This document shows, in pieces, positions 200-40,740 of a stretch of 64,000 nt of DNA. This DNA is from Oscillospiraceae bacterium (GTDB taxonomy: Bacteria > Bacillota > Clostridia > Oscillospirales > CAG-272). Under the pieces are notes generated by a model. It saw only the letters and a list, made by a program, of their open reading frames with translations. It did no database searches and had not been told where the DNA came from. How positions within the stretch are numbered: the stretch's first letter is position 1; the number at the start of each line of letters is the position of its first letter. Location: NCBI GenBank assembly GCA_015064255.1, contig SVSP01000002.1, positions 127,462 through 191,461 on the forward strand, given 5' to 3'. The position numbers and the translations under genes are program-made.

Positions 200-317
200 T
201 ACAAACGTATTTTCTGTGTTAGCACAGCATAAATTCTTTTGTTTGTCTGAAAAACGGGATTTGATCTTTTCTGATCCCGTTTCACATACTTATTTTGCTT
301 CAAACAGGCTTTTTGCC

Positions 318-346: not shown

Positions 347-413
347 CAATTTGTTATACAATAATATTATTGCGGAACGCGGAAGATGTTTCGCGGTAAG
401 GAGAAATTATAAT

Positions 414-1424: not shown

Positions 1425-1447
1425 ACTAAGTGAATGTGATTGTGCAT

Positions 1448-1897: not shown

Positions 1898-1925
1898 AAT
1901 ATCTAAATATAAGGAGAAAAACACA

Positions 1926-3698: not shown

Positions 3699-3701
3699 TT
3701 T

Positions 3702-3780
3702 CTCGGGGCTTTGCCCCGAGCCCCCCACCAAACCCCTTTTTGAAAAAAGGGGTTGGATCCCCAAAAACTTTTCTGAAAAG
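3702..3780 (+). repeat. Modular hairpin element, forward unit (hp1 + hp2 + box)
   Basis: hp1 ctcggggctttgccccgag at 3702-3720; hp2 ccaaacccctttttgaaaaaaggggttgg at 3728-3756; box ccccaaaaacttttctgaaaag at 3759-3780. Starts 4 nt after the pepF stop. Confidence 0.85.
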
Positions 3781-3794
3781 GTAAGAATAAAAAT

Positions 3795-3830
3795 AACCCC
3801 GACAGATTTCTGTCGGGGTTATGTGTTTTT
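3795..3830. terminator. Bidirectional intrinsic terminator (pepF / TPR gene)
   Basis: aaccccgacagatttctgtcggggtt stem-loop with a T-run on the + strand and an A-run upstream. Lies between convergent genes. Confidence 0.7.
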
Positions 3831-4636: not shown

Positions 4637-4726
4637 CTGCCTTGCTGCCGAGCGAAAGTAAGATATATTTTAACACAAATCCGTGAAAAAATCAATAACA
4701 AATGTTACAGATATTGTTATTTGTCG

Positions 4727-4763
4727 AAAAAAACGGTTTCGAATTCCGAAACCGTTTTTTGTT
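4727..4763. terminator. Intrinsic terminator downstream of the GH2 gene
   Basis: aacggtttcgaattccgaaaccgtt at 4732-4756, flanked by an A-run and a T-run, immediately after the GH2 stop at 4764-4766. Confidence 0.75.
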
Positions 4764-7544
4764 TTACAGAATACTGAACGAAAACTCCTTTTCTCCGCCG
4801 TAAATACCTGCTTTTCCCGCATTTGCGCGGATAATAATAGTGATTTCAAAGCTGTCATCGCCGCAGGTGTCGAAATATATCTTTCGTCTTGTCGGCCAAG
4901 GATTCTGACTTCCCGTGTAATCTGACAGGTCGCTGTCAACAAGCCTTCCGTTTATCCAGACCTCATATTCGAGATAAACGATATGTCCGATACTGAGAAG
5001 TGCCTTTTTGTTTTCGCCCCTGATGGTCGGAATTTTCACCGTGTGACGGTAGAATTTCCAACCCTTGTCGAAATCCTGGAAGCTTCGAACCTCCATCTTC
5101 CACGAAACGAAGTTGTTCATATCGGTATCGGAAAGAACCATATTCGGGTCGGGCTTCTCGGGGAAGGTTACGTTTGAAACGGTTATCTCGTCTATCTTTC
5201 TTCCGTAGCTTTCGGGAAGATAAATATCCTGCTTCGCGTTTACAATGTCGAAGGTTATCGTTTCATCGGCGCATCCTTCACAGGAGATTACAACCGAAGC
5301 TTTCTCGGCACGGTCTTTTACCTGCATTATAGCCTGACATCTTCCTGCAAAAAGGTATCTTTCGCTTGCTTTTTCGGCTTCGTGGCTGTTTGGATTGCCG
5401 TTTCCGACGCCGATTATCTCACAGTCCCCTATAGCCTTGAATTTTATAAGATTGTCTGCATTGTGAACTACGCTTCCTGATGCATCGGTGAGGTAAACGT
5501 CTATGGCAGAAGCGTCCTTTCCGCTGTTGTCAAGCACTGCTTTGTGAGCCGTTGCAATAATTCTTGAGGGTGCGGACGGTGTTCTGAGTGTGTCCTCGCA
5601 GACTATTTCTCCGTCCTTGTATCCGATAGCGTTAAGTACGCCCGGAACAAATTCGATCTCCCAGTAGCACTGCGATGAGAGCTTGGACTCGCGTCTTCCG
5701 AGCGACTCCCCGTTGAGATAAAGCTCTACCTCGTCTGCGTTTGTTACGGTCATTATCTTGACCTTTTCGCCCTCTTTGTGATTCCAGTGGTGGAGTATTT
5801 TCATCATAGGCTCGTCTGTGAAGCAAGCGCGCATTACGTGTGCAGATGCTTTAGGGTATCCGCAGAGATCGAAAACTCCGAAAAGGGAAACAACCGTCGG
5901 GTACTTGAAGGGAGTGGGCTCTCCGCGGTAGTCAAATCCGGTCCAGATGAAGAGTCCTGCGATCCACTCACGCTCGGAAAGTACCTTCCACGCATCCTGC
6001 ATAGTGCAGCCCCACGGCACCGTATAGCTGTCAAAATCTTCGATGAGATTGTTGTCGAGATCTCTTGTCTGCTGTCCGCGGATCGCAAGTGCCGAAAGAT
6101 TTTCGCTTCCCGTTGTGGGTATGTTCGGATATTCGGCGCGGATCTTATCTACCGAAGCGTGGTTGTAATTTACGCCGAAAACGTCCATTTCGTATATTGC
6201 GCCCGTGCCTGTGTAGAAATTCGTGTTTTGCGCGGCAGTTGTCGGACGCGTAGGATCGAGCTTTTTTATCGCACTCTTGAGTCGTGCGTAAAGAGTACTC
6301 GATTCCTCGCTGCCCTGTATTGCCTCTTCGTTGAATATCGACCACATAATAACGCTCGGATGGTTGCGGTCGCGCTTTACCATAGTGCGGATGTTGAGAA
6401 GAGTATCGTCGTTTGCTTCAAATCGGCGGTTTTCGTCCATAACGAGTATTCCGTATTTGTCGCACGCGTCTAAAATTTCGCGCGCGGGAATATTGTGAGC
6501 ACATCTGTAGGCATTTACTCCCCACTCCTTGAGGATCTGTATTCTCATATCCTGAATGGAATCGGGGACGGCTACGCCGACACCCGCGTGGTCCTGATGA
6601 CAGCAAACGCCCTTGAGAAGAATATGTCTGCCGTTTAAGAAAAATCCCTTTTCGTTGTCAAAATAGAACGTTCTGAAGCCGAAATTCGTACTGTCCTCGT
6701 CAAGAAGCTCGTTTTCGCGGTAGATGCGGGCAAATGCCTTGTAGAGATTCGGCTCGTTAATATCCCAAATATCGGGGTCTTCGACGGTCATTTCAAGCTT
6801 TACAGTCTTTGTTTCGTCGAAATCCATAGAGTTGTTCTTTTTCGCTACGGCAACGCTTTCACCGTATCTGTCGAAAAGCTCTACCTCGACAGTAAACTCT
6901 CCGCTTGGCGTGTATGCGCTGTTTTCGACCTCAATTTCGGCAAATACACTCCATTTGTTGCCGTCGCCCTTGACAGGATTTATCCACAATCCGTTGTGCG
7001 CGATGTGGAGAAGCTCTTTCGCGTAGAGCTTTACGTGTCTGTAAATTCCCGTGCCTTCGTACCACCATCCTTCACAGCTTTTGCCGTCTACCTCTACAGA
7101 GATCAGGTTCGCGCTTTTGCCGAATTTGACACGGGGTGTGATGTCAAGAACGGTTTCGCTGTACGCGCTCGTAGAGCGTCCCGCGAGCGAACCGTTGAAA
7201 TATATATTGGAAAAAACCGAAATTCCTTCAAAAACGAGGGTAAAATGCTTGTTTATGTATTCAGTAGGCATTTCAAAGCTTTTTCTGTACCATACGTTTT
7301 CTCTTATCTTCGAGCCGTGAGAGGGCGGTGTGCTGTCATCGAATCCGACCTCGACTCTTCGGTCGTGAGGAAGATCAACTATGCGCCAATCGTCGTCGTT
7401 GTATTTGAAGCCCGCTTCGCCGTGTGCTGCACCCGTCTTAACGCTTGAATATATTTCGGCGTGGCTGTTCGCACCGTTTTCGATGTTGGTATCGTCCACA
7501 GCCTTGAATTTCCAGTTTTTATCTGCGTTAAATAAAGTTCTCAT
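4764..7544 (-). CDS. Glycoside hydrolase family 2 (beta-galactosidase/beta-glucuronidase-like)
   Basis: ORF 4764..7676; start set at the ATG at 7544 (MRTLFNADKNWKF) with GGAG upstream. Shows a GH2 sugar-binding/TIM-barrel pattern (NAYRCAHN, HPSVIMWSIFNE). Confidence 0.8.
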   Translation of the reverse strand: MRTLFNADKNWKFKAVDDTNIENGANSHAEIYSSVKTGAAHGEAGFKYNDDDWRIVDLPHDRRVEVGFDDSTPPSHGSKIRENVWYRKSFEMPTEYINKHFTLVFEGISVFSNIYFNGSLAGRSTSAYSETVLDITPRVKFGKSANLISVEVDGKSCEGWWYEGTGIYRHVKLYAKELLHIAHNGLWINPVKGDGNKWSVFAEIEVENSAYTPSGEFTVEVELFDRYGESVAVAKKNNSMDFDETKTVKLEMTVEDPDIWDINEPNLYKAFARIYRENELLDEDSTNFGFRTFYFDNEKGFFLNGRHILLKGVCCHQDHAGVGVAVPDSIQDMRIQILKEWGVNAYRCAHNIPAREILDACDKYGILVMDENRRFEANDDTLLNIRTMVKRDRNHPSVIMWSIFNEEAIQGSEESSTLYARLKSAIKKLDPTRPTTAAQNTNFYTGTGAIYEMDVFGVNYNHASVDKIRAEYPNIPTTGSENLSALAIRGQQTRDLDNNLIEDFDSYTVPWGCTMQDAWKVLSEREWIAGLFIWTGFDYRGEPTPFKYPTVVSLFGVFDLCGYPKASAHVMRACFTDEPMMKILHHWNHKEGEKVKIMTVTNADEVELYLNGESLGRRESKLSSQCYWEIEFVPGVLNAIGYKDGEIVCEDTLRTPSAPSRIIATAHKAVLDNSGKDASAIDVYLTDASGSVVHNADNLIKFKAIGDCEIIGVGNGNPNSHEAEKASERYLFAGRCQAIMQVKDRAEKASVVISCEGCADETITFDIVNAKQDIYLPESYGRKIDEITVSNVTFPEKPDPNMVLSDTDMNNFVSWKMEVRSFQDFDKGWKFYRHTVKIPTIRGENKKALLSIGHIVYLEYEVWINGRLVDSDLSDYTGSQNPWPTRRKIYFDTCGDDSFEITIIIRANAGKAGIYGGEKEFSFSIL

Positions 7545-7676
7545 AGTGTGAAAAATCTCCTTTACTTTATCGTTCCATCGATTGTAGCATATTTTGGGGG
7601 CTTTGTCAACAAGAAAGCAAGTGAAGGTATTAATTGATAAAAATGACAAAAATTCAAATAAATTTTCAAATCCCAC

Positions 7677-7704
7677 TTGTATTTTTTTGAAATTGTGGTA
7701 TAAT
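7677..7704 (+). promoter_or_regulatory. Extended -10 promoter for the decarboxylase cluster
   Basis: TTGTAT at 7677-7682, 16-nt spacer, TGgTATAAT ending at 7704. Followed by a leader of about 200 nt before the ATG at 7909. Confidence 0.5.
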
Positions 7705-7908
7705 CAATTTTAGAATGGGGTAGGATGTTGGTTTTGTGTAAAATATACCCGAGCAGAGCATCCGAAGTCTGTTCTGTGTGTATGAGAATTTCGGTAAAAA
7801 GATATTCTTATATACAAAAAAGTACTTATCAGCCTCGGGCTGAAACAATAAAAAGTGAGAAAGGGTTTTGTTCACTGAAAAAAGTGGACAGCAAGGTAAG
7901 TTGGTTCT

Positions 7909-9273
7909 ATGAGCAACACAAACAAAAGCATATCCCTGCTCTTCGACGAAGGTACGTTTGTTGAAACCGGAGCCTATATCACAGTAGGAAATGACGACTC
8001 CAAGAAGTCGGGCGCTACTTGTGGCTACGGTGCTATAAACGGTGCTCTGGTCTTTGCGTTTGCACAGGACTTTTCTGTCGAAAAGGGCGCGCTCGGAAGA
8101 GCACAGGCTGAAAAAATTTGCGCACTTTACGATATGGCACTTAAAAACGGAGCTCCCGTTATAGGAGTATTCAGCAGTGCCGGCGTAAGAGTTAAGGAAG
8201 GAAGCGCAGTTCTCGGAGCATACGGTAAGCTTCTCGCAAAGATAAACGCGGCTTCCGGAGTTATTCCGCAGATCGCAGTTGTTGATGAAGTTTGTTCCGG
8301 TCTTTCGGCAACAGCGGCATCTATGTTCGATATCGTTATAGCGGACAGCGCATCTAAATTCTACATTACACCTCCCGGTGTTGCAAAGGTAAACGGTGTT
8401 TCCGAAGCGGGAAGCGCGGCATATGCCTTTGAAAACGGAAATATTGATATAGTTTGCGAAGGTAAGGAAGATTCTCTCGCAAAGGCACGCGATATCGTAT
8501 CCGTGCTTCCTCAGAATTCTGCTCAGGGCTATGCGTATGCGGAAGCAGATGACGACGCTTGCAGAGTAACTGCAGAGCTTGAAAACGCAAAGGACGTACG
8601 CGAAGCGGCAGCAATTATTGCAGATAACGGTCATTATACCGAGCTTAAGGCTGATTTTGCACCGAACGCTCTTACGGCTATCGCATCTCTCGGTCAGATC
8701 ACAGTAGGTATCTGCGGTCTCGGCGGAGCACTCGGCGCACCTGAAGCGAAGAAGATCTCTTCTTTCATTTCCTTCTGCGATAACTTCTCTATGCCTGTAA
8801 TTACAGTTCTCGACAGCTGCGGTGCAGATCACGAATCGGGCGATGAAATTCTCCCCGGAGAATTTGCAAAGCTTGCTTCGGCTTATGCAGGCGCAAACTG
8901 TCCTAAGATCACATATATTCTCGGTAAGGCTTACGGTGCGGCATTCACTCTCGTTGGCTCGAAGGCACTCGGCGCAGATATGGTTTACGCTGCTCCCAAG
9001 GCTGAAATCAGTGTGCTTTCTCCCGAAGCTTCGGTACAGTTTATGTTTGCAGACGAGATAAAGGCTGCTGACGACAGTGCCGCAAAGCGTGCAGAGCTTC
9101 TTAAGAAGTGGAAGAGCGAAGAAGCGCTTCCCGAAAAGGCTGCAGCAAACGGCTCTATCGATGACGTTGTTGCGTACGCAGAAACAAGAGCAAGAATTAT
9201 CTCTGCTGTTGAAATGCTCTTTGCAAAAATCTCGGGAAATCCCGCAAAGAAGCATTCAAAGCTTCCTTTCTGA
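7909..9273 (+). CDS. Acyl-CoA carboxyltransferase (12S / MmdA / PccB-like), short and divergent
   Basis: 454 aa with a two-lobed carboxyltransferase pattern (LLFDEGTFVE, GYGAINGALVFAFAQDF, NGAPVIGVFSSAGVRVKEG). An in-frame stop 12 nt upstream fixes the N-terminus. Confidence 0.7.
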   Translation: MSNTNKSISLLFDEGTFVETGAYITVGNDDSKKSGATCGYGAINGALVFAFAQDFSVEKGALGRAQAEKICALYDMALKNGAPVIGVFSSAGVRVKEGSAVLGAYGKLLAKINAASGVIPQIAVVDEVCSGLSATAASMFDIVIADSASKFYITPPGVAKVNGVSEAGSAAYAFENGNIDIVCEGKEDSLAKARDIVSVLPQNSAQGYAYAEADDDACRVTAELENAKDVREAAAIIADNGHYTELKADFAPNALTAIASLGQITVGICGLGGALGAPEAKKISSFISFCDNFSMPVITVLDSCGADHESGDEILPGEFAKLASAYAGANCPKITYILGKAYGAAFTLVGSKALGADMVYAAPKAEISVLSPEASVQFMFADEIKAADDSAAKRAELLKKWKSEEALPEKAAANGSIDDVVAYAETRARIISAVEMLFAKISGNPAKKHSKLPF

Positions 9274-12865: not shown

Positions 12866-12879
12866 CTTATAAAATAAAA

Positions 12880-12916
12880 ATACCAACGGATTTTTATAGT
12901 CCGTTGGTATTTTTTG
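12880..12916 (+). terminator. Intrinsic terminator after the decarboxylase cluster
   Basis: ataccaacgga-tttttatag-tccgttggtat followed by tttttt. Confidence 0.8.
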
Positions 12917-12920
12917 TTGT

Positions 12921-13005
12921 TCAGTAAAGTTTTTGCCTTAAGGGACGCTGTTCCTTAAGAAACCCTGCGGGCGTTTGAAAAAGCTCGACCAAAACTTTTA
13001 AAAAC
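12921..13005. repeat. Degenerate modular hairpin element copy
   Basis: Box-rc tcagtaaagtttttg at 12921-12935; hp1-like cttaagg...ccttaag at 12937-12959; linker-like aaccc; decayed hp2 (gtttgaaaaagc); decayed box accaaaacttttaaaaac. Confidence 0.55.
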
Positions 13006-13284
13006 AAATTGTTATTTTGGGTGCTGTGAGCAAAGGAAAGTAAGTTCCTAATGTATAAAAAAGGTTTTGTGCTGTGCGAACACATCTAAAACGCGATTGA
13101 GTGTCTTTTCGTTCATTTCTGTGTCGACAGAAACGAACCAAAGAACGATATAAGGAAGGGAGGAATCCCTTCCTTATAAATCCAACCCTCTTTTACCGCC
13201 GCGGGGAAACGCGGCGGCAGTATAGTTTACTTTGTACGGAATTTTCGAAGATGTGATAATACATAGAAAAATGTTTTTTATTTT

Positions 13285-13311
13285 CTTTTCAGAAAAGTTC
13301 TTGGCGGGTAC
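13285..13311 (-). repeat. Truncated modular hairpin element, minus orientation
   Basis: The minus strand reads gtacccgccaagaacttttctgaaaag (linker, hp2 left arm fused to box). It begins 2 nt after the stop of the minus-strand gene 13314..14141. Confidence 0.6.
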
Positions 13312-13313
13312 TC

Positions 13314-15616: not shown

Positions 15617-15788
15617 ATAGTTCTCCGGGTGATTTTATATAAATAACTGAGTATATATTACCTCTTGTGTATGAACGGCATATTAACAATTTTGAGTGTT
15701 TTTCGCAATTTTTATTATATTTTTTCAATAAATAAACAGCTTTGGCGTAAAACGAATGAAAAAAAGAAAATATTTGTTAAAATTATAT

Positions 15789-15817
15789 TTGACAAAAGCT
15801 GTATAGTGAGTTATAAT
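15789..15817 (+). promoter_or_regulatory. Consensus promoter of rnpB
   Basis: TTGACA at 15789-15794, 17-nt spacer, TATAAT at 15812-15817, about 8 nt upstream of the RNA start. Confidence 0.7.
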
Positions 15818-15824
15818 GTAAGAT

Positions 15825-16215
15825 GGAACCGAGCTGTGCTGTCGCGCGGTATGTCGCCGAAAGGTATTACCGTGAGGAAAGTCCGGGCACCGTAGTGCAG
15901 GATAACGGATAACGTCCGCCGAGGGTGACCTCAGGGAAAGTGCAACAGAAATAAACCGCCCGCCCGTTTTCGGGAAGGTAAGGATGGAAAGGCGAGGTAA
16001 GAGCTCACCGGCACATTGGTAACTTTGTGCGTCACTGTAAACCCTATCCGGTGCAACACCTATGCAAACCGGCAGAAATGCCGATGCCTGCACGGCATTT
16101 GTTTTGTCAGGTGGCACAGAGCCGTACGGCAACGTACGGACAAGATAGATGACAGCTCAAGGTCGGCAAAGCTTCCGCCGACCCCGACAGAACCCGGCTT
16201 ACAGGCTCGGTTTCG
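15825..16215 (+). ncRNA. rnpB: RNase P RNA, bacterial type A
   Basis: P4 signature GAGGAAAGTCCGGGC near the 5' end and ACAGAACCCGGCTTAC near the 3' end. P1 pairing is aaccgagc (15827-15834) with gctcggtt (16205-16212). Confidence 0.9.
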
Positions 16216-16249
16216 GACATTTTATTAAATTGTTTGTGGAGGCATAGAT

Positions 16250-20222: not shown

Positions 20223-20231
20223 GAAGGTTTG

Positions 20232-20306
20232 CCAAGGACTCTGTCCTTGGATCCTGCTTAAACCCTTTTTGAAAAAAGGGTTTAAGAATCCCAAAAACTT
20301 TTCTGG
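20232..20306 (+). repeat. Modular hairpin element, forward unit (hp1 + hp2 + box)
   Basis: hp1 ccaaggactctgtccttgg at 20232-20250; hp2 cttaaaccctttttgaaaaaagggtttaag at 20257-20286; box cccaaaaacttttctg at 20290-20305. Starts 10 nt after the galE stop. Confidence 0.85.
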
Positions 20307-20356
20307 GAATATACAAAATTCAACTGTAAAATCACTACAAACGGAGGAGGATAACT

Positions 20357-22882: not shown

Positions 22883-23140
22883 TTATGAGAAAAATATTAC
22901 GATAACGGTGAAAAGCACCGAGCATATCGCGCATCCGAGGGAAAATGAGAAAAAACGCTTAAGCGATGCGGGACACTCGTCCTCGGCTGTCTTTTCTCTT
23001 ATGATTTTCGATGCCTCTTTTATCATATCGCGTATGCTGTGTTTGTCGGTATTTTCGCGTAAGACGAAATACGCACTTTCGAAAAGAGAACTTTTTGTGT
23101 CGCGTATAACCACCACTCTGCGTCTGTAACCCTTGTACAT
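22883..23140 (-). CDS. Hypothetical small protein with C-terminal TM anchor
   Basis: 85 aa with the C-terminal segment LGCAICSVLFTVIVIFF. No recognisable family. Confidence 0.35.
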   Translation of the reverse strand: MYKGYRRRVVVIRDTKSSLFESAYFVLRENTDKHSIRDMIKEASKIIREKTAEDECPASLKRFFSFSLGCAICSVLFTVIVIFFS

Positions 23141-23185
23141 TTTATTCGGCTCCTCCCTTTAAAATTATAGGTTTGTAATTTTTTC

Positions 23186-23404
23186 TTAATTTTCGAATAC
23201 GCTTATAATTTCTTCGGCTATTTTACTTGATATTTCGCTGTCTTCTTCGTCTGTGCCTGTCATTTCGTATATTTGCGAAGCTGAAAACGATATGCCCGAT
23301 GCTTCGCTGCTGTGCGCGAGAAAACAGAGCGAGAGTGTTATGATGAGCAGGGAAAGAAGTACGGCATACATACACCGTGAATACTGCTTTATAATTTTTA
23401 TCAT
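23186..23404 (-). CDS. Hypothetical small secreted protein
   Basis: 72 aa with a signal-peptide-like N-terminus (AVLLSLLIITLSLCFLAHS) and an acidic tail. Confidence 0.3.
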   Translation of the reverse strand: MIKIIKQYSRCMYAVLLSLLIITLSLCFLAHSSEASGISFSASQIYEMTGTDEEDSEISSKIAEEIISVFEN

Positions 23405-23543
23405 TTTGAAATATCCTTTCTGTTTGTGAATCGTATTTGTGTGCTGATATATTTTTACCGTTAAAACAGAGTATTATGCGAATTTTGGGAAATAAGATAC
23501 AAAAAGAATTTAAAAGAAATCTTATGATAGTACATATTTAGCA

Positions 23544-23572
23544 TTGACATATTGAAAAAAAAGTGGTATAAT
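23544..23572 (+). promoter_or_regulatory. Consensus extended -10 promoter of the pyr operon
   Basis: TTGACA at 23544-23549, 17-nt spacer, TGgTATAAT ending at 23572. Confidence 0.65.
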
Positions 23573-24991: not shown

Positions 24992-27900
24992 ATGCCGAAG
25001 AGAACAGACATTCACAAGATAATGATAATTGGCTCCGGTCCGATAGTAATCGGTCAGGCTGCCGAATTCGACTATGCAGGTACACAGGCTTGTATCGCGC
25101 TTAAAGAAGAAGGCTACGAGGTAGTTCTTGCAAACTCCAACCCCGCAACGATAATGACAGATACATCTATTGCAGATAAGGTGTATATGGAGCCGCTTAC
25201 TCTTGAGTATGTGTCACGAATCATTAGATACGAGCGACCCGACGCAATTATCCCCGGTATCGGCGGTCAGACAGGTCTTAACCTCGCGATGCAGCTCGAA
25301 AAGAAGGGAATACTCGCAGAATGCGGAGTAGAGCTTCTCGGAACGTCGGGCGAAAGTATCGAAAGAGCAGAAGACAGAGAGCTTTTCAAGGAGCTTTGTA
25401 CATCTATCGGCGAGCCTGTAATTCCCTCGGAAATAACATACTCGGTTGAAGAAGCAAAAAAGGCGGCTGAAAGAATAGGATATCCCGTAGTACTTCGTCC
25501 CGCATTTACACTCGGCGGTACAGGCGGCGGATTTGCAGGTGACGAAAAGGAGCTTGAAGAGGTTGCTATCAACGCTTTCAGACTCTCTCCCGTTCATCAG
25601 GTTCTTATCGAAAAGAGCGTTAAGGGATACAAAGAAATTGAATTTGAAGTTATGCGCGACGGCACCGGACACGCTATCACCATCTGCGGTATGGAAAACG
25701 TTGACCCTGTCGGCGTTCATACGGGCGACTCGGTCGTTGTTGCTCCGATTATGAGCCTTTCAAAGGAAGACGAAAAGATGCTCAACGATAGTGCAATCAA
25801 GCTTATCAAGGAGCTTAAGATAGAAGGCGGATGCAACGTACAGTTTGCACTTCACCCTACAACTTCTCAGTATTATCTTATCGAGGTAAACCCGAGAGTT
25901 TCCCGTTCTTCTGCGCTCGCATCCAAGGCAAGCGGATATCCGATAGCAAGAGTTACGGCAAAGATCGCTGTCGGTATGACTCTTGAAGATATCAAGCTCG
26001 GAAATACTACCGCGGCATACGAGCCCTCTCTTGACTATATAATCGCGAAGCTTCCGAGATTCCCGTTTGATAAATTTGCGGCAGCTACGAACAAGCTCGG
26101 CACACAGATGAAGGCAACAGGTGAGGTTATGGGTATCGGCTCAAACCTTGAAGAATGTCTTCTCAAATCGGTACGTTCACTTGAGATCGGAGTTTGCCAC
26201 TTCCATATGCCTAAGTTCGATAATATGGCTACCGAAGAAATAATTGAGTATATGTCTGATTTCAGAGATGATACTCTCTTTACGGTATGCGAGCTTCTCC
26301 GCCGCGGAGTTACGATCGAAAAGCTTCACGAGATCACGATGATAACTCCCCTTTTCCTCGAAGCTCTTAAGCGTATAACCGACTGCGAAGCAGTACTCAA
26401 GGATAACGTTATGAACGAGGAAGTGCTTAAAGAAGCAAAGAAGCTCGGTTTCTCGGATAAATATATCGCAAAGCTCTGGAACACACGCGAAATTGACGTA
26501 TGGAAGTTCCGTACAGGCAAGAATATTTATCCTATCTACAAAATGGTAGATACAGCGCACACGGGACACTATATTCCTTACTTCTATTCGAGCTATACAG
26601 GCGAAAACAAGTCGATAGTTACGGATAAGGAAAAGAAGCTGGTTCTCGGTGCAGGTCCTATCCGTATCGGTCAGGGCGTGGAATTTGACTACTCATCGGT
26701 TCACGCAGTTCAGACGATACGTAGCGCAGGATACGAGGCTATTATAATAAACAACAACCCCGAAACAGTTTCGACAGACTATACAACTGCCGATAAGCTC
26801 TATTTCGAGCCTCTCACAGTAGAGGACGTTATGAACATCGTCCACTTTGAAAATCCCGACGGAGTTATCGCATCTCTTGGCGGACAGACGGCAATCAATC
26901 TTGCACAGCCCCTACACGATCTCGGAGTCAAGCTCATCGGTACAGACTGCGAGGCAATCGATAAGGCAGAGGACAGAAACGCATTTGAAAATCTTCTCAA
27001 CGACCTTAATATCCCGAGAGCAAAGGGAAAGGCTGTTACAAATATTGAGGACGGAATTAAAGCGGCAGCAGAGATCGGATACCCCGTGCTCGTTCGTCCG
27101 AGCTTCGTTCTTGGCGGACGCGCTATGCAGATCGTAGGTAACGAGGAGCAGCTCCGTCAGTACCTTAAAACCGCCGTTGAGATCGACGAGGACAAGCCCG
27201 TTCTCGTAGATAAGTATATTATCGGTAAAGAGGTCGAGGTCGATGCTATTTGCGACGGTCGCGACGTGTTCGTGCCCGGTATAATGGAGCTTGTTGAGCG
27301 TACAGGTGTACACTCGGGAGACTCTATCAGCGTATATCCCACCTTCAGCATTTCCAACAAAGTAAAGGGAACGATCCTTCAGTACGCAAAGAAGCTCGGT
27401 CTTGGAATCGGCATCAAGGGACTTTACAACATTCAGTTTATCGTCGATAAGGACGAGAACGTATATATCATCGAGGTAAACCCCCGTTCTTCCAGAACGG
27501 TACCCTTCCTCTCTAAAGCAACAGGCTACAGCCTTGCTGACATCGCAACAGAGGTAATTCTCGGTAAGAGCCTCAAGGAACAGGGAATTTTTGATATTTA
27601 CCCCGAGGAAAAGAAGCGTTATTACGTTAAGGTGCCGGTATTCTCCTTCAATAAGATAAGCGGACTTGACGCATATCTCTCCCCTGAGATGAAGTCAACA
27701 GGTGAGGCTATCGGTTACGATGACAAGCTCTCCCGCGCAATGCAAAAGGCACTTATTGCAGGAGGAGTAACCCTTCAAAACTACGGAACTATTATAGTAA
27801 CCCTCGCAGACGAGGACAAGGAGGAGGCGCTCCCCTTGGTTCGCCGCTTCTACGATATGGGATTCAATATTGAAGCAACGATAGGTACTGCGAACTTCTT

Positions 27901-28165
27901 AAAGGAGCACGGAATCCGTACAAGAGTGCGCAAGAAGCTTCTTGAGGGCAGTGAGGAGATATTTGACTCTATTCGTGCAGGATACGTAAGCTACGTTATC
28001 AACACCCGCGCGATCTTGTCGGGCATACATTACAATGACGGTATTGAGATACGCCGCTGCGCGGTTGAGAACGGTGTAACACTTTTCTCGAGTCTTGATA
28101 CTGTGAGAATCGTTCTTGACGTTCTTGACGAAATCACCAACAGAGTATCTACCATAGATTCGTAA
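24992..28165 (+). CDS. carB: Carbamoyl-phosphate synthase large subunit
   Basis: 1057 aa with duplicated ATP-grasp halves (IMIIGSGPIVIGQAAEFDYAGTQA and LVLGAGPIRIGQGVEFDYSSV) and an MGS-like C-terminus. Confidence 0.95.
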   Translation: MPKRTDIHKIMIIGSGPIVIGQAAEFDYAGTQACIALKEEGYEVVLANSNPATIMTDTSIADKVYMEPLTLEYVSRIIRYERPDAIIPGIGGQTGLNLAMQLEKKGILAECGVELLGTSGESIERAEDRELFKELCTSIGEPVIPSEITYSVEEAKKAAERIGYPVVLRPAFTLGGTGGGFAGDEKELEEVAINAFRLSPVHQVLIEKSVKGYKEIEFEVMRDGTGHAITICGMENVDPVGVHTGDSVVVAPIMSLSKEDEKMLNDSAIKLIKELKIEGGCNVQFALHPTTSQYYLIEVNPRVSRSSALASKASGYPIARVTAKIAVGMTLEDIKLGNTTAAYEPSLDYIIAKLPRFPFDKFAAATNKLGTQMKATGEVMGIGSNLEECLLKSVRSLEIGVCHFHMPKFDNMATEEIIEYMSDFRDDTLFTVCELLRRGVTIEKLHEITMITPLFLEALKRITDCEAVLKDNVMNEEVLKEAKKLGFSDKYIAKLWNTREIDVWKFRTGKNIYPIYKMVDTAHTGHYIPYFYSSYTGENKSIVTDKEKKLVLGAGPIRIGQGVEFDYSSVHAVQTIRSAGYEAIIINNNPETVSTDYTTADKLYFEPLTVEDVMNIVHFENPDGVIASLGGQTAINLAQPLHDLGVKLIGTDCEAIDKAEDRNAFENLLNDLNIPRAKGKAVTNIEDGIKAAAEIGYPVLVRPSFVLGGRAMQIVGNEEQLRQYLKTAVEIDEDKPVLVDKYIIGKEVEVDAICDGRDVFVPGIMELVERTGVHSGDSISVYPTFSISNKVKGTILQYAKKLGLGIGIKGLYNIQFIVDKDENVYIIEVNPRSSRTVPFLSKATGYSLADIATEVILGKSLKEQGIFDIYPEEKKRYYVKVPVFSFNKISGLDAYLSPEMKSTGEAIGYDDKLSRAMQKALIAGGVTLQNYGTIIVTLADEDKEEALPLVRRFYDMGFNIEATIGTANFLKEHGIRTRVRKKLLEGSEEIFDSIRAGYVSYVINTRAILSGIHYNDGIEIRRCAVENGVTLFSSLDTVRIVLDVLDEITNRVSTIDS

Positions 28166-28590
28166 CCAAGGGCGTTGCCCTTGGAACCCGCTTAGAAACT
28201 TTTTGAAAAAAGTTTCTAAGAACTTCAAAAACTTTGCTGAAAAAGAGCAAGATTCGGAGGAGGCAGTTTTTGCGTCAGCAAAACTGCCAAGCGATGACGA
28301 AGTCATCGGTTTTCCCTTATGGAAACCCTGCCAAAACCCTTTTTGAAAAAAGGTTTTGGATTCCCAAAAACTTTACTGAAAAGAAAAAATAATAGTCGAA
28401 GCGACACGAAGTGTCGGTTTGGGCGCGTAATTTGCGGTTTTTGCTTACTCATAGTTTATCAGGGGTACGGACCGTCGAGGACGCCGGTCCCTACAATGGA
28501 TTTAATATTATAAACTAAAACAAATTCCTTCCCCCTTTAAGAAAAGTTTTTGGGAAGGTGCGGAAACCCTTTTTTCAAAAAGGGTTTCTG
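28166..28590. repeat. Array of modular hairpin element units and accessory hairpins
   Basis: Forward unit 28166-28245; hairpins 28262-28288 and 28292-28308; forward unit 28331-28383; hairpin 28402-28416; hp4 28469-28495; reverse unit 28527-28590. Fills the carB-pyrK spacer. Confidence 0.85.
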
Positions 28591-28610
28591 AGTAAAAGAA
28601 AGGCAGAGAA

Positions 28611-29354
28611 ATGAAGCAATCTATTTTTATTGTGATTTCCAACCGAAAGGTTGCAAAAAACACATTTGAAATGAAGCTTTCGGGCGATATTTCACATATT
28701 ACTGCACCCGGTCAGTTTGTCAATATTCAGCTTGACGGATTCTATCTCCGCAGACCTATTTCGGTTTGCGATGCAGAAAACGGAGTGCTGACACTTGTAT
28801 ATAAAGTGGTCGGCAAGGGAACGGAAAAGATGGCTGAAATGACAGGCGGAGAAGAGCTTGATATACTTACAGGCCTTGGTAACGGATATGACCTCACAAA
28901 ATGCGGAGATAACCCTCTGCTTGTGGGCGGCGGCGTAGGACTTCCTCCGATGTTTCTGCTCGCAAAAGAGCTTGTAAAAGCGGGTAAAAAGGTTAAGGTC
29001 ATAGCAGGATTCGGAAGCGCAGACGAGGTTTTCTATAAAGAAGAGTTCGAAAATATAGGCGCAGAGTTTACCGTAACCACCGTTGACGGAAGCTGCGGAA
29101 TCAAGGGTTTTGTAACAAACGCTCTTGAAACTGTCGGAGAATATTCCTCAATATGCTCGTGCGGTCCCGAGCCGATGCTCAAAGCGCTTTACAGCGCAAC
29201 AAGCGCTCCCGCGCAGTTCAGCTTTGAGGAACGTATGGGCTGCGGATTCGGCGCTTGTATGGGTTGCTCGTGCAAGACAGTTACAGGATATAAACGTATT
29301 TGCAAGGACGGCCCCGTTCTTTGCAGAGAGGAGATATTATGGGAAAAGCAGTAG
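28611..29354 (+). CDS. pyrK: Dihydroorotate dehydrogenase electron-transfer subunit
   Basis: 247 aa with an FAD/NAD-binding pattern and the C-terminal 2Fe-2S cysteines CGFGACMGCSC. Confidence 0.85.
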   Translation: MKQSIFIVISNRKVAKNTFEMKLSGDISHITAPGQFVNIQLDGFYLRRPISVCDAENGVLTLVYKVVGKGTEKMAEMTGGEELDILTGLGNGYDLTKCGDNPLLVGGGVGLPPMFLLAKELVKAGKKVKVIAGFGSADEVFYKEEFENIGAEFTVTTVDGSCGIKGFVTNALETVGEYSSICSCGPEPMLKALYSATSAPAQFSFEERMGCGFGACMGCSCKTVTGYKRICKDGPVLCREEILWEKQ

Positions 29355-35922: not shown

Positions 35923-37197
35923 ATGATAAAAATATTTGAAGATATAAAAAATATAGATAAAACTCTCCTTTTTAACCGTTCGCTTTCGGCATCGGGTGTT
36001 GAGGATATCGTAAGTGATATAATTTCAAACGTGCGCAGCCGCGGCGACGAGGCACTTTTTGAATACACAGAGCGTTTCGACAGAGCAAAGCTGACATCTC
36101 TTGAGGTATCAAAGGAAGAAATCGAAAAGGCTGTCAGCGAGATCGGCGAAGAATTTATGGGAGTTTTGCGCCGTGCGGCTGAAAATATTGAAGCATTCCA
36201 CAAAAGACAGGTAAGAAACAGCTTTATTATAAACGAGAAAAACGGCGTGGTTACCGGACAAAAGGTGATTCCTCTTGCCAAGGTCGGAATTTACGTTCCG
36301 GGTGGCACGGCGGCTTATCCGTCCTCCGTGCTTATGAATGCAATTCCCGCGAAGCTCGCAGGAGTAGGCGAGATCATTATGGTTTCACCCGCAAGCGGAG
36401 GAAAGATTGCTCCCGCTATTCTTGCGGCGGCATACGTGGCAGGAGTTGACCGCGTGTTCGCTCTCGGCGGAGCGCAGGCTGTTGCAGCACTCGCATACGG
36501 AACAAAGAGTGTTCCTATGGTTGACAAGATAGTCGGACCGGGTAACGCGTTTGTTGCAGAGGCGAAGCGTCAGGTTTACGGTCAGGTTGCGATAGATATG
36601 ATCGCAGGGCCGAGCGAAATTCTCGTAATTGCAGATAAAAATTCAAATCCCTCTTACGTTGCCGCCGATATGCTTTCGCAGGCAGAGCACGACAAAAATT
36701 CGACCGCGGTTCTTATTACCGACAGCATTGAGCTTGCTGAAAAGGTTTCGGACGAGCTTGAACGTATGATCCCTCTTCTTCCGAGAGCCGAGATCGCCCG
36801 CGCTTCTGTCGATAACAACGGAAAGATCATCGTTACCGACGATCTCCTCGAAGCGATTGAGCTTTCAAACGATATCGCTCCCGAGCATCTTGAGCTTTGT
36901 CTTGACGATCCTTTTGCTGTTCTTGACCGTGTGAAGAATGCAGGATCGGTATTTATGGGAAGATATTGTCCCGAAGCTCTCGGCGACTACTTCGCAGGAC
37001 CCAATCACACACTTCCCACCAGCGGAACTGCAAGATTCTCAAGCCCTCTTTCTGTTGACGACTTCGTTAAGAAAATGCAGTACACCTACTTCACCAAGGA
37101 AGCGCTCGGCGAGGTTGCAGACGACGTTATGGCTTTTGCCGAAAAAGAAGGTCTCTCCGCACACGCACGCAGCGTAGGAGTACGCAAAGGGACTTAG
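35923..37197 (+). CDS. hisD: Histidinol dehydrogenase
   Basis: 424 aa; QAEHD motif and GDYFAGPNHTLPT. The stop TAG lies inside repeat hairpin 37193-37211. Confidence 0.95.
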   Translation: MIKIFEDIKNIDKTLLFNRSLSASGVEDIVSDIISNVRSRGDEALFEYTERFDRAKLTSLEVSKEEIEKAVSEIGEEFMGVLRRAAENIEAFHKRQVRNSFIINEKNGVVTGQKVIPLAKVGIYVPGGTAAYPSSVLMNAIPAKLAGVGEIIMVSPASGGKIAPAILAAAYVAGVDRVFALGGAQAVAALAYGTKSVPMVDKIVGPGNAFVAEAKRQVYGQVAIDMIAGPSEILVIADKNSNPSYVAADMLSQAEHDKNSTAVLITDSIELAEKVSDELERMIPLLPRAEIARASVDNNGKIIVTDDLLEAIELSNDIAPEHLELCLDDPFAVLDRVKNAGSVFMGRYCPEALGDYFAGPNHTLPTSGTARFSSPLSVDDFVKKMQYTYFTKEALGEVADDVMAFAEKEGLSAHARSVGVRKGT

Positions 37198-37336
37198 GGT
37201 TCTGCCCTAAGAACCCGCCAAAACCCTTTTTGTAAAGAAGGTTAAAACGATTTGCGCGCAAATCGTTTAAGAATTCCCAAAAACTTTACTAAAAGGGGGA
37301 ATTATAATTGTAGGGACAGGCGTCCTCGACTGTCCG
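37193..37336 (+). repeat. Modular hairpin element copy (hp1 + interrupted hp2 + box + hp4)
   Basis: hp1 cttagggttctgccctaag at 37193-37211. hp2 is interrupted by the perfect 24-nt palindrome aaacgatttgcgcgcaaatcgttt at 37245-37268. Box at 37275-37295; hp4 tgtagggacaggcgtcctcgactgtcc at 37309-37335. Confidence 0.85.
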
Positions 37337-37360: not shown

Positions 37361-38440
37361 ATGAGTAAATATATGAACAAAAAATACGCCGAGCTTACGG
37401 CGTACACACCCGGCGAACAACCGCTTGGTGTCAAATACATAAAGCTTAATACAAACGAGTCCCCCTTTCCGCCCTCTCCCGACGTGCTCGTGTCGATAGG
37501 CTACGGCGAGCTTTCCGATCTTCGTCTTTACTCCGACCCCGATTGCCGCGGACTTCGCAAGGCGCTCGGAGAGTTCTACGGACGCGAAACCGACGAGATT
37601 TTCGTTTCAAACGGCTCGGACGACATTCTGAACTTCGCATTTATGGCGTTTTCCGAAAGGGGCGTTGTCTTTCCCGATATAACCTACGGTTTTTACGAGG
37701 TCTATGCGAAGCTGCACGGTGTAAATTACGAAAAAAAGCCTCTTTGCGATGATTTCACCATAAAAACCGAAGATTATCTTAACGAAAACGGCAAACTTAT
37801 AGTTATCGCAAATCCAAATGCACCGACCGGAATTTTTAAACCGCTTGGCGAAATCGAGCGTATACTTAAGGCAAATCCCGACAGCGTTGTGCTTGTCGAT
37901 GAAGCGTACATTGATTTCGGCGGCGAAAGCGCCCTGAAACTGCTTGACAGCTACAAAAATCTGCTTGTCGTACGTACTTATTCCAAGTCAAGAAGCCTTG
38001 CGGGAGCGCGTCTTGGATTCGCTTTCGCGGATAAAGAAATTATTGCCGATCTTAATAAGCTGAAATTCTCGACCAATCCGTACAGCATCAACCGACTTAC
38101 ATTAATTGCGGGCGAAGCGGCTCTTCGGAACGGAAAATATTATGAGGACAACGCGAAAAAGATCATCGAAACACGAGAATACGTTACAGAAAAACTACGC
38201 GAAATGGGCTTTGAGGTTATAGAGTCTGCGGCAAATTTCGTTCTTGCAGGACACGACGCGATTTCCGGCTCGCTTTTTGCTGAAGAAATGAAAAAACGCG
38301 GTATTCTGATAAGACATTTCTCGGGCGTACGTCTTGAAAAATATAACCGCATAACGATAGGAACTCGCGCCGAAATGGACGCTTTCCTCTTCGCCGCTGA
38401 GAAGATTATAGCCAAGGGCGCTGCCCTTGGAACCCGCTAA
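37361..38440 (+). CDS. hisC: Histidinol-phosphate aminotransferase
   Basis: 359 aa class-II aminotransferase with the PLP lysine region RTYSKSRSLAG. The last 9 codons are encoded by repeat hp1 and linker. Confidence 0.9.
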   Translation: MSKYMNKKYAELTAYTPGEQPLGVKYIKLNTNESPFPPSPDVLVSIGYGELSDLRLYSDPDCRGLRKALGEFYGRETDEIFVSNGSDDILNFAFMAFSERGVVFPDITYGFYEVYAKLHGVNYEKKPLCDDFTIKTEDYLNENGKLIVIANPNAPTGIFKPLGEIERILKANPDSVVLVDEAYIDFGGESALKLLDSYKNLLVVRTYSKSRSLAGARLGFAFADKEIIADLNKLKFSTNPYSINRLTLIAGEAALRNGKYYEDNAKKIIETREYVTEKLREMGFEVIESAANFVLAGHDAISGSLFAEEMKKRGILIRHFSGVRLEKYNRITIGTRAEMDAFLFAAEKIIAKGAALGTR

Positions 38441-38567
38441 AGAACTTTTTGAAAAAAGTTCTTTGGAATCTCAAAAACTTTGCTGAAAAAATTAGTAAGA
38501 ATCCAACCCCTTTTAAGAAAAGTTTTTGAAAGGGCTTGTGGAAACTTTTTTCAAAAAGTTTCCACAA
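38412..38567. repeat. Composite modular hairpin element (forward + reverse units, inverted-repeat structure)
   Basis: hp1 at 38412-38430; hp2 at 38439-38464; box at 38469-38490; box-rc at 38507-38534; hp2 ttgtggaaacttttttcaaaaagtttccacaa at 38536-38567. Confidence 0.9.
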
Positions 38568-38586
38568 AGAGAAAGGAAATAAAATA

Positions 38587-39812: not shown

Positions 39813-40526
39813 ATGATAATTTTTCCTGCAATAGATCTTTACGAGGGCAAGGCGGTGCGTCTTTACAAGGGCGACTATGCACAGCTCACGGTTTATGATG
39901 AAAATCCGATAAATACGGCAAAAAAATTTGTAGCAGAAGGCGCGACACATATCCATATGGTTGACCTTGAGGGCGCGCGTGACGGCAACACCCCGAATTT
40001 CGAAACAGTAAAACAGATAGTTACTTCGACCGATCTTTTTGTTGAGATCGGAGGCGGAATACGCGATATGGAAACTATCGACAAATATCTTTCTATCGGT
40101 GTTGGACGTGTTATTCTCGGTACGGCGGCTGTTTCAAGCGAGGGATTTGTAGAGCGTGCCGTAGCTAAATATGGCGACAAAATAGCAGTCGGGGCAGATA
40201 TAAAGGACGGCGAGATAGCCGTTAAAGGCTGGGTAGAAAAAAGCGGTGTCAAGAGCGACGATTTCTTTGAAAAAATGCAGAAGATCGGCGTAAAAACTGT
40301 TATTTGCACCGATATCTCGCGCGACGGAGCTATGCGCGGTACAAATCTTGAGCTTTACAAGTCGCTTTCTGAAAAATATGATATGAACATAATTGCTTCG
40401 GGCGGTGTTTCTTCGATGGACGACGTTATCGCACTTCGCAAAATGAACGTTTACGGCGCGATAATCGGCAAGGCTTATTACACCGGCGCTATCAAGCTCT
40501 CGGATGCGCTTAGGGCTCTGCCCTAA
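39813..40526 (+). CDS. hisA: ProFAR isomerase
   Basis: 237 aa; MIIFPAIDL N-terminus and (beta/alpha)8 HisA pattern. The last codons and the stop lie in repeat hairpin 40509-40527. Confidence 0.9.
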   Translation: MIIFPAIDLYEGKAVRLYKGDYAQLTVYDENPINTAKKFVAEGATHIHMVDLEGARDGNTPNFETVKQIVTSTDLFVEIGGGIRDMETIDKYLSIGVGRVILGTAAVSSEGFVERAVAKYGDKIAVGADIKDGEIAVKGWVEKSGVKSDDFFEKMQKIGVKTVICTDISRDGAMRGTNLELYKSLSEKYDMNIIASGGVSSMDDVIALRKMNVYGAIIGKAYYTGAIKLSDALRALP

Positions 40527-40732
40527 GAACCCGCCAAGGGCGCTGCCCTTGGAACTCGCCAAAGAACTTTTTGTAAAAAGTTCTTTGGAATCTCAAAAAC
40601 TTTACTGAAGGAAATATTATTATTTCTTTTTAAGAAAAGTTTTTGAATGGGTTTGGGAAAACTTTTTTCAAAAAGTTTTCCCAAGAGAACGTTTTAGAAA
40701 GGCATGGAAAACCTTTTATTAAAAGGTTTTCC
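40509..40732. repeat. Composite modular hairpin element (two hp1, forward unit, reverse unit, extra hp2)
   Basis: hp1a at 40509-40527; hp1b at 40534-40552; hp2 at 40559-40588; box at 40591-40610; box-rc at 40627-40650; hp2 at 40653-40684; hp2-like ggaaaaccttttattaaaaggttttcc at 40706-40732. Confidence 0.9.
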
Positions 40733-40740
40733 GATTAATT

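Follow-up and report, generated by a model that had tools for sequence, protein, structure and literature searches.

A hypervariable repeat mosaic at the carB–pyrK junction of an Oscillospiraceae bacterium contains a cross-phylum repeat unit that is a candidate for intrastrand triplex formation

How does a pyrimidine biosynthesis operon come to hold several hundred bases of almost uninterrupted hairpins between two of its genes? The question is raised by a 64-kb stretch of an Oscillospiraceae bacterium (contig SVSP01000002.1, hereafter the window), in which 445 bases (28166-28610), nearly all of them self-complementary, lie between the carB stop codon and the pyrK start codon. An initial annotation of this DNA offered three readings of the spacer, namely an insertion hot spot, a processed intercistronic region, or a structured noncoding RNA, and held that it splits the operon in two. 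The reading that we favor, and regard as probable, has two parts: the spacer is a mosaic of short repeats, comparable to the bacterial interspersed mosaic elements (BIMEs) of Escherichia coli, that has built up at a junction formerly 8-18 bp long, and its principal repeat unit is of a kind that may form a triple helix within a single strand.

The first part of this reading begins with the composition of the spacer. DNA folding places nine local hairpins within it, including every hairpin named at the outset, at the positions given in Table 1, and the initial description of the spacer as stem-loops from wall to wall is borne out. Six of the hairpins are 2.7 to 5.3 standard deviations better than shuffles of the same bases, and two others, designated hp2 of unit B (z = -1.4) and hp4 (z = -1.65), are unremarkable by that measure. 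Folded as RNA, the entire spacer reaches -156.1 kcal/mol versus -112.3 +/- 5.7 kcal/mol in 100 dinucleotide shuffles (z = -7.7), none of which folds as well. Sorted by sequence, the array consists of three copies of one repeat unit (units A, B, and C), the hairpin element hp4, two mini-hairpins with C-GAA-G triloops, and one unique hairpin.

An alignment of eight copies from the window defines the layout of the unit, which is dispersed, modular, and about 55-80 nt long: a first hairpin (hp1, for example CCAAGGGC-GYT-GCCCTTGG) is followed by AACCCGC, a second hairpin (hp2) in which 6-10 variable pairs surround the invariant core CTTTTTGAAAAAAG, a short pyrimidine-rich linker, and finally CAAAAACTTT-N-CTGAAAAG, where CAAAAACTTT constitutes an invariant tail. 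An nhmmer profile built from the aligned copies recovers 13 copies (E <= 2e-8) spread over 7 intergenic sites of the window, 5 of the 13 lying outside the seed alignment; the hp2 core pattern matches 7 times where 0 matches are expected, and the hp1 module heads 6 of the units. The forward and reverse units first noticed in the spacer are real, but they are not particular to it, being members of a dispersed family. A similar correction applies to hp4, which does form a hairpin but belongs to a second and different family: its minus strand reads TTGTAGGGACCGGCGTCCTCGACGGTCC, that is, GTAG and then an imperfect palindrome, a second copy at 37309-37336 (+) shows a compensatory stem change from CCGG/CGG to CAGG/CTG, and exact copies are present in two other Oscillospiraceae metagenome-assembled genomes (MAGs; loci L057 and L063).

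All 13 unit copies and both hp4 copies in the window are intergenic or overlap just the final codons of a gene. The overlaps are clearest in the his operon, where the 5' arm of one hp1 includes the TAG (37195-37197) that ends hisD, the 3' arm of another includes the TAA (40524-40526) that ends hisA, and a third encodes the final residues of HisC (AKGAALGTR), with the hisC stop codon TAA (38438-38440) falling between hp1 and hp2. Repeat insertions have replaced the original C termini and stop codons of these three his genes. The unit is thus abundant in the genome, sits at gene ends and between cistrons, and at times provides the stop codon.

We fetched contigs from relatives through their PyrK homologs and ranked them by PyrK identity, which allows the carB-pyrK junction to be followed through states of very different length. 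At 74% identity (L006) the spacer is 8 bp long (GAGAAAAA) and at 85% (L127) it is 18 bp long, in both cases without repeats. At 75% (L129) it measures 357 bp and holds an unrelated large inverted repeat; at 81% (L130), about 130 bp, with an hp1 and tail followed by a reverse unit; at 89% (L005), 243 bp, with two tandem reverse units; and at 95% (L003 and L002), 375 bp, with a forward unit that has a palindrome nested in it, a middle part that differs, a reverse unit, and one more hp2. The last 18 bases of the spacer in the window resemble the entire 8-bp spacer of L006. Given junctions of 8-18 bp in some relatives and differing mosaics in others, the ancestral junction must have been short and was filled independently in several lineages. 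A second junction behaves in the same manner: hisD and hisC overlap (ATGA) with no insert in L005, whereas in the window they are separated by an insert of 163 bp, and the new hisD stop codon falls within the hp1 stem of this insert. The pyrE-pyrB spacer, which we also compared, contains no unit and so supplied no insertion boundaries. Over 20 kb of L005 the unit family is sparse, and over 20 kb of L006 it is essentially absent, which argues for a recent expansion in the lineage of the window.

Gain and loss of the unit between close relatives is quick, and we consider it very likely that the array is a recent, fast-changing pile-up of dispersed repeats at an insertion hot spot. Of the three readings offered at the outset, the hot spot is thus the one that the comparison upholds, since the array itself is absent from relatives, which have a short spacer or other mosaics instead. 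The window derives from a metagenome contig, and arrays of repeats can be misassembled; the related contig at 95% breaks within the same array, and contigs often start or end inside units (L002 at its position 1, L008, L012, L049, L071, and others). Because such repeats break short-read assemblies, array lengths in metagenome contigs, including those given here for the window, call for caution.

The same comparison bears on the suggestion of a structured noncoding RNA. A highly structured segment located inside a pyr operon could be a dedicated cis-regulatory RNA or a small RNA, such as an attenuator, a PyrR-type site, or a riboswitch; however, the junction shares nothing conserved between relatives, and identical blocks recur in the his operon and elsewhere, in both orientations. 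At gathering score, Rfam models match only RNase P and one tRNA over the whole window, both outside the spacer, and at E <= 10 they find nothing credible in the spacer, PyrR included. We therefore abandon the dedicated RNA and regard a pyr regulatory role of this kind as highly improbable. Nor is a splitting of the operon visible in the sequence, because a scan of the spacer finds no promoter-like site on the + strand and terminator-like sites are not above shuffles (one weak site, at 28292-28308, versus 1.0 expected). The sequence 3' of hp1 and hp2 is of the AACCC type, in place of the T runs of an intrinsic terminator.

The unit itself reaches well beyond this genome. We scanned a one-genome-per-species collection for the pattern CTTTTTGAAAAAAG-N10-18-CAAAAACTTT, in which 24 bases are fixed, and found at least 120 matching genome stretches. 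The matches listed come mostly from MAGs of gut or rumen Clostridia, and other carriers belong to Desulfovibrionaceae, Thermodesulfobacteriota, Acidobacteriota, Aminicenantes, Omnitrophota, Verrucomicrobia, and Selenomonadaceae. Two carriers are isolates: Acidocella facilis ATCC 35904, whose large GC-rich scaffolds bear several copies, and Halodesulfovibrio spirochaetisodalis JC271. The family accordingly spans several phyla, with members in Clostridia, Alphaproteobacteria, Desulfobacterota, Acidobacteriota, Verrucomicrobia, and others, and the outer stem of hp2 varies between all of these carriers yet stays complementary. A second scan, of metagenomes, required hp1 and the hp2 core and left the tail free; 91 of the 99 distinct instances carry C-A(4-7)-C 8-30 nt downstream, mostly as CAAAAACTTT, so that the tail is a conserved part of the unit. 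In IMG/VR, merely 11 stretches match, two of them from the source sample of the window, which indicates that the unit is not a phage element, and a blastn search of the units against plasmid and phage records gives only chance-level matches.

The genomic surroundings of these copies, taken from crude open reading frame (ORF) calls, show the unit 33 times in sense and 41 times in antisense orientation where the flanking genes are in tandem, and convergent gene pairs flank it more often (37) than divergent ones (17). From the upstream stop codon on the same strand, the hp2 core most often lies 35-49 nt away (57 of 143), so that hp1 begins at the stop codon or just 3' of it. Such positions raise the possibility that the array acts as punctuation in RNA, in the manner of repetitive extragenic palindromes (REPs), by shielding the carB message from 3' exonucleases or by giving RNase sites, and so uncouples carB from pyrK-D-F-E. 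The very stable fold, the placement of units directly 3' of stop codons, and the preference for 3' gene ends all speak for such a role, as does the fact that REP/BIME elements of Escherichia coli stabilize upstream mRNA. Against it, sense and antisense copies are about equally common, close relatives manage with junctions of 8 or 18 bp, and terminator-like features are not enriched, and we find this account of the array doubtful.

What sets the unit apart from an ordinary hairpin repeat is the way in which its linker varies with its stem. We assembled 127 distinct instances across taxa, among which there are 108 different 8-nt arms. Positions 1-6 of the hp2 stem are paired in 92-96% of the instances, and positions 2-6 nearly always place a purine on the 5' arm and a pyrimidine on the 3' arm. 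The linker, which runs from the 3' arm to CAAAAAC, is 76% pyrimidine and tends to mirror the 3' arm, as in the pairs TTCCCCTCAA and ACTCCCCT or TTTTCCAA and ACCTTT (3' arm and linker, respectively); a complete example is a copy from L016, which reads TTGAGGGGAA-CTTTTTGAAAAAAG-TTCCCCTCAA-ACTCCCCT-CAAAAACTTTT. When the linker base k before the tail is compared with the arm base k+1 before the core, the linker is the parallel complement of the arm (T for A, C for G) at 70.6% of purine positions, versus 41% when linkers are permuted between instances (z = 18). The match persists when the permutation is stratified by GC content (z = 16) and in the 102 arms that lack mirror symmetry (z = 13.5), and it is replicated in an independent metagenome set (68% versus 48%, z = 9.8). 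Neighboring parallel registers give z <= 7.6; for antiparallel (Watson-Crick) registers z does not exceed 5.4, or 5.5 if G-T wobble counts as a match. The commonest linker 4-mer for a given arm 4-mer follows the same rule (AGAA/TCTT, GGGA/CCCT, GAAA/CTTT, GGAA/CCTT, AGGA/TCCT, AAAA/TTTT), and hp1 obeys it as well across taxa (z = 6.1), with GGGGC-loop-GCCCC followed by CCCCG, GGGGT by CCCCA, and GGAC by CCTG.

This pattern corresponds to the code of the pyrimidine-motif triplex, in which a third strand lies parallel to the purine strand, forms T.A-T and C+.G-C triples, and is a mirror repeat of the pyrimidine arm; the complementary strand of such a triplex follows the purine motif. We know of no copying mechanism that yields a reversed, uncomplemented sequence. 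The invariant tail, CAAAAAC-TTTT, mirrors the G-AAAAAA-G/CTTTTT of the hp2 core and could continue the third strand as A.A-T triples; this is a conjecture, as the role of the tail in the fold must be, because the tail never varies.

Could the mirror covariation instead be a by-product of subfamily structure and base composition, so that the units are simple hairpin repeats that lack a third strand? The copies are related by descent, and permutation z-scores overstate their independence; in addition, arms and linkers are of low complexity, and even a direct, unreversed comparison is somewhat above the null (z = 5.4). Against this, a single parallel register stands far above its neighbors and above every antiparallel one, and the signal survives GC stratification and the removal of mirror-symmetric arms and recurs in the second collection. 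It extends over seven different purine 4-mers, for each of which the predicted third strand is the commonest linker, and a plain hairpin cannot explain the strict purine/pyrimidine asymmetry at stem positions 2-6. We therefore think a by-product improbable, and the balance of evidence tips modestly toward the unit folding as an intrastrand triplex, for which its sequence makes it a candidate. On this evidence the unit appears to be a new and widely distributed variant of the intrastrand-triplex repeats.

Several points weigh against the triplex and against the wider reading in which it takes part. The covariation is limited to 4-5 levels, the triplex is a prediction from sequence, and C+.G-C triples require protonation. 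Where C-G pairs lie beside the core the linker has C, whereas the mirror rule predicts G, and units B and C of the spacer itself fit the rule at just 2-3 of 5 positions. The z-scores are inflated by the shared ancestry of the copies, and the invariant core and tail, which cannot covary, have a conjectural part in the fold. The mode of movement is likewise unsupported, with no target-site duplication at the junctions compared and no associated gene in the 120 loci. Finally, all six hp1-bearing units of the window are in sense orientation, 3' of + strand genes, a one-sidedness that could hint at an effect at the RNA level or of the replication strand, unseen in the pooled data.

A further alternative concerns how the unit moves. 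The units might be ordinary miniature inverted-repeat transposable elements (MITEs), with units B and C forming the terminal inverted repeats of a 260-bp nonautonomous transposon (28331-28590) that carries cargo between them; solo units would then be half-elements, and a transposase encoded elsewhere would recognize the invariant core and tail. Units B and C do form a long inverted repeat, in which 28334-28357 matches 28564-28587 (24 nt, 96%) and 28361-28381 matches 28536-28556 (21 nt, 90%), forward/reverse pairs occur again at 38409-38571 and 40533-40688, and a sequence that is invariant across phyla would fit a protein recognition site under horizontal transfer. The geometry is nevertheless not that of fixed termini, since the tails point inward in the window and outward in Acidocella and solo units are common. 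Filled and empty junctions (L006 and L127 for carB/pyrK, L005 for hisD/hisC) reveal no target-site duplication. An all-against-all blastp of ORFs finds no neighbor gene that recurs in more than 5 of the 120 loci, apart from one unannotated cluster in 10 loci; a nonexhaustive search sees no transposase between or beside units in those loci, and Pfam finds no transposase or HUH domain in the 20 small or unassigned ORFs of the window. Plasmid and phage records have no significant match, and the parallel covariation of arm and linker would be left unexplained. We hold a MITE origin to be unlikely.

Returning to the repeat mosaic with a candidate triplex-forming unit, comparison with known systems helps to place both of its parts. 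The REP/BIME elements of E. coli and other Proteobacteria, which are mobilized by the REP-associated tyrosine transposase (RAYT), a Y1 transposase, share with the array their short extragenic palindromes, high copy number, location at 3' gene ends and between cistrons, and clusters of alternating orientation with short linker motifs (here at 28331-28590, 38409-38571, and 40533-40688) that vary between close relatives. The second-family element hp4 (TTGTAGGGACC...) even has the GTAG and imperfect palindrome of a REP. The main unit, in contrast, has no GTAG (GT[AG]G) in hp1, hp2, or tail, is made of two hairpins and an invariant tail, and keeps its invariant parts across several phyla, whereas REP sequences are particular to one species or genus; the 64 kb examined revealed no RAYT gene. 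The MITE-like repeats Correia/NEMIS of Neisseria, RUP and BOX of Streptococcus pneumoniae, and ERIC resemble it in size (50-300 bp), in forming inverted-repeat composites that fold into long hairpins (BOX being modular like the unit), and in inserting beside or over gene ends and occasionally supplying a stop codon. They differ in that no target-site duplication, fixed terminal-repeat geometry, or parent insertion sequence was found for the unit, and in that the unit is spread over phyla.

The nearest described relative of the unit is the PIT/TMECO intrastrand-triplex motif (Holder et al. 2015, PMC4666352), whose consensus is CCCTCNCCC-N3-6-GGGNGAGGG-N3-GGGNGAGGG and which was reported in 262 genomes, all proteobacterial. 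Both have a three-segment design, a purine and a pyrimidine arm plus, beyond a short loop, a segment that mirrors one of the two; both are strictly intergenic, without strand bias (33 sense and 41 antisense for the unit), and unlinked to transposons, phages, or plasmids; and the loci that carry them are unusually variable between close strains, as in the six states of the carB-pyrK junction for the unit. The unit is nonetheless unrelated in sequence to the TMECO consensus, places its third segment 3' of the pyrimidine arm and not of the purine arm, has as its hairpin "loop" a conserved 14-nt T5/A6 mini-stem, possesses an invariant CAAAAACTTT tail and two modules, has a triplex part only about 5 levels long, and is found in Clostridia and at least six other groups. 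The ITxF search used in that work admitted only stems of 6-15 nt with loops of 1-6 nt (PMC4666352) and would miss both hp1, with its 5-nt core stems, and hp2, with its 14-nt "loop." In our own full-text literature search no paper has the core and only unrelated primer lists have the tail, and further searches, on REP/RAYT in Clostridia and on mirror repeats, turned up no account of the element.

A likeness at the RNA level is found in the transcript-stabilizing triple helices of PAN RNA in KSHV (Kaposi's sarcoma-associated herpesvirus), with its ENE, and of the MALAT1 3' end. As is proposed for the unit, a third strand there lies in the major groove of a hairpin, with U.A-U and C+.G-C triples, about 5 or more of them stacked, and the reverse strand of the unit has the two U-runs flanking an A-run of an ENE. 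Those structures differ in being eukaryotic or viral, in being strand specific, and in clamping a 3' A-rich tail, whereas the orientation of the unit relative to genes is random, which leaves an RNA role unproven.

From these elements a mechanism for the locus can be proposed. Short dispersed intergenic repeats would have colonized the carB-pyrK junction, originally 8-18 bp long. Each module, judging from the covariation, would comprise a hairpin with a homopurine 5' arm and then a mirror copy of its pyrimidine 3' arm. Whenever the DNA or its transcript is single stranded, as on the lagging-strand template, in a transcription bubble, or in the transcript itself, the trailing segment could enter the major groove of the stem and form T.A-T and C+.G-C triples, giving an intrastrand triplex. 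By analogy with PIT/TMECO and REP in E. coli, such folds may stall replication and provoke slippage or recombination, which in turn would make the sites hypervariable and let units accumulate side by side. In the polycistronic pyr mRNA, again by analogy, the array would most likely be read through and would at most act as a 3' exonuclease barrier or a processing site. We raise more tentatively, as something possible that falls somewhat short of an even chance, that the unit represents a previously undescribed class of self-folding triple-helix modules (a hairpin plus a Hoogsteen strand) in several phyla. It would then be either a new kind of structured selfish DNA that spreads and destabilizes intergenic positions via the triplex or the first equivalent, widespread among bacteria, of the eukaryotic and viral triple-helix RNAs, and its core CTTTTTGAAAAAAG and tail CAAAAACTTT would be bound by a conserved protein.

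For the pyr operon, the practical consequence is that a false lead is removed: the array is no pyrimidine regulator but repeat litter at a hot spot, which breaks assemblies and adds spurious small ORFs. The unit is of greater interest than the array, as a sequence shared across phyla whose paired stems vary freely and are accompanied by a third-strand code in parallel register. It offers a concrete candidate for natural intrastrand triplexes outside Enterobacteria and Cyanobacteria and a handle on the hypervariability of some intercistronic junctions in gut Clostridia, and since the Acidocella and Halodesulfovibrio carriers are cultured isolates, experiments are feasible.

The positions of the genes that flank the spacer, of its constituents, and of the other unit clusters of the window are collected in Table 1. 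Gene identities derive from Pfam matches on identical gene calls of a JGI metagenome contig (sample 3300031555). The genes next in line 3' of pyrK are pyrD, pyrF, a PHP-domain gene, pyrE, pyrB, and pyrI; the best PyrK homologs bearing a taxon name, 68-70% identical, come from MAGs of Ruminococcaceae and Clostridia.

Table 1. Genes, repeat units, and hairpins of the carB-pyrK spacer and further unit clusters in the window (dG in kcal/mol, DNA folding).
Feature	Positions	Strand	Description
carB (carbamoyl-phosphate synthase large subunit)	24992-28165	+	ORF; Pfam CPSase_L/ATP-grasp/MGS
carB stop codon TAA	28163-28165	+	directly abuts unit A, the first repeat unit
Unit A, module 1	28166-28190	+	hp1 then AACCCG; CCCG mirrors inner part of 3' arm
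Unit A, hp1: CCAAGGGC-GTT-GCCCTTGG	28166-28184	+	8 bp; dG -8.0; z = -3.8
Unit A, hp2: CTTAGAAA-CTTTTTGAAAAAAG-TTTCTAAG	28191-28220	+	13-14 bp; dG -10.6; z = -5.3; 14-nt arms, 100% complementary
Unit A, linker AACTT (candidate third strand) and tail CAAAAACTTTGCTGAAAAAG	28221-28245	+	mirror rule at 4/5 positions
Unique hairpin: GGCAGTTTTTGC-GTCA-GCAAAACTGCC	28262-28288	+	dG -9.6
Mini-hairpin: CGATGAC-GAA-GTCATCG	28292-28308	+	C-GAA-G triloop; dG -5.2; then GTTTTCCCTT
Weak hairpin: TTTCC-CTTAT-GGAAA	28311-28325 (block 28309-28328)	+	dG -2.6; by alignment, where full units have hp1
Unit B, without hp1	28331-28383	+	hp2 28331-28359; linker ATTCC; tail CAAAAACTTTACTGAAAAG; nhmmer E = 3.8e-18
Mini-hairpin: CGACAC-GAA-GTGTCG	28402-28416	+	C-GAA-G triloop; dG -4.4
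hp4, REP-like element	28464-28497 (hairpin 28465-28494)	-	minus-strand reading TTGTAGGGACCGGCGTCCTCGACGGTCCGTACC
Unit C, without hp1	28527-28592	-	linker CGCACCTTCC; tail CAAAAACTTTTCTTAAAGGGGG; nhmmer E = 6.6e-19
Unit C, hp2	28562-28589	-	dG -10.5; unit C tail and hp2 are inverted repeats of unit B
Remnant of original short spacer	28593-28610	+	pyrK ribosome-binding region AGTAAAAGAAAGGCAGAGAA 5' of ATG
pyrK (dihydroorotate dehydrogenase electron-transfer subunit)	28611-29354	+	ORF; Pfam DHODB_Fe-S_bind
Cluster of three hp2-plus-tail units	44-196	.	without hp1; one hp2 tailed on both sides
Solo full unit	3698-3786	+	between convergent genes; nhmmer E = 3e-21
Solo full unit	20229-20311	+	3' of epimerase gene; nhmmer E = 4.5e-22
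hisD-hisC spacer cluster	37190-37336	+	full unit with nested palindrome AAACGATTTGCGCGCAAATCGTTT in hp2, then hp4
hisC-hisB spacer cluster	38409-38571	+	forward and reverse unit, tail to tail
hisA-hisF spacer cluster	40508-40735	+	two tandem hp1 modules, forward unit, reverse unit, hp2-like hairpin

Some resemblances and readings of the unit were considered and set aside. Likeness to the hix site of serine invertases (TCAAAAAC), to sigma-54 and IHF sites, and to attC was dropped on grounds of spacing and consensus. A coding reading (FLKK...KNF in one frame) was rejected, since both orientations occur and the stems vary but stay complementary, and so was a G-quadruplex or i-motif as a general rule, since AT-rich copies without runs of C or G keep the covariation. 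The source annotation places a 47-aa gene with a TTG start wholly inside the array, within units A and B (28203-28346 of the window, 9593-9736 of L001), and this call is almost certainly spurious.

A perfect palindrome of 24 nt, AAACGATTTGCGCGCAAATCGTTT, sits within hp2 at an identical point in two different units, where it replaces the 3' arm (37239-37262 in the window, 208-231 in L003, and 33-56 in L002); it has the look of another small mobile palindrome that prefers a site within the unit. In L003 a GC-rich segment at 260-370 (CCTCTCACTTCGGGAGGGG...) separates the forward from the reverse unit, and the carB-pyrK spacer of L129 contains, at 3380-3610, a long inverted repeat of about 230 bp in which motifs such as CCTTCTCCTCAAGGAGAAGG are frequent. 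Farther afield, in L016 (Thermodesulfobacteriota, 1-8000) and L097, a further conserved block, T(A/G)GCTATTATCCC, and a long hairpin come after the tail; L016 has three units in 8 kb, all on one strand, which suggests lineage-specific extra modules. The IMG/VR contigs L131 and L138, from the same sample as the window (3300031555), carry the unit; they may be prophage regions, or sequence from the same host that was wrongly classed as viral.

Elsewhere in the window, the RNase P RNA (class A, 261.8 bits) lies at 15826-16217 on the + strand and the tRNA at 62276-62349 on the - strand; a 135-aa ORF at 15725-16132 (-) that overlaps the RNase P gene is probably not real. Two other long intergenic gaps, 12866-13313 (448 bp) and 23130-23551 (422 bp), are without significant copies of the unit, the former having one weak tail-like match at 13284-13306. 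As for the small hairpins of the spacer, the unique hairpin has no further copy within the 64 kb, and the stem-GAA-stem design of the two mini-hairpins, read at first as an echo of the center of hp2, proves a loose resemblance only: these are C-GAA-G triloops, of which no additional copy was found in the window. Four tandem mini-hairpins with GAA loops (for example, GCGAT-GAA-ATCGC and CGGAT-GAA-ATCCG) do occur in the hisC-hisB spacer of the 89% relative (L005, 19262-19345), and small GAA-triloop hairpins may constitute another repeat class in the clade of the window.

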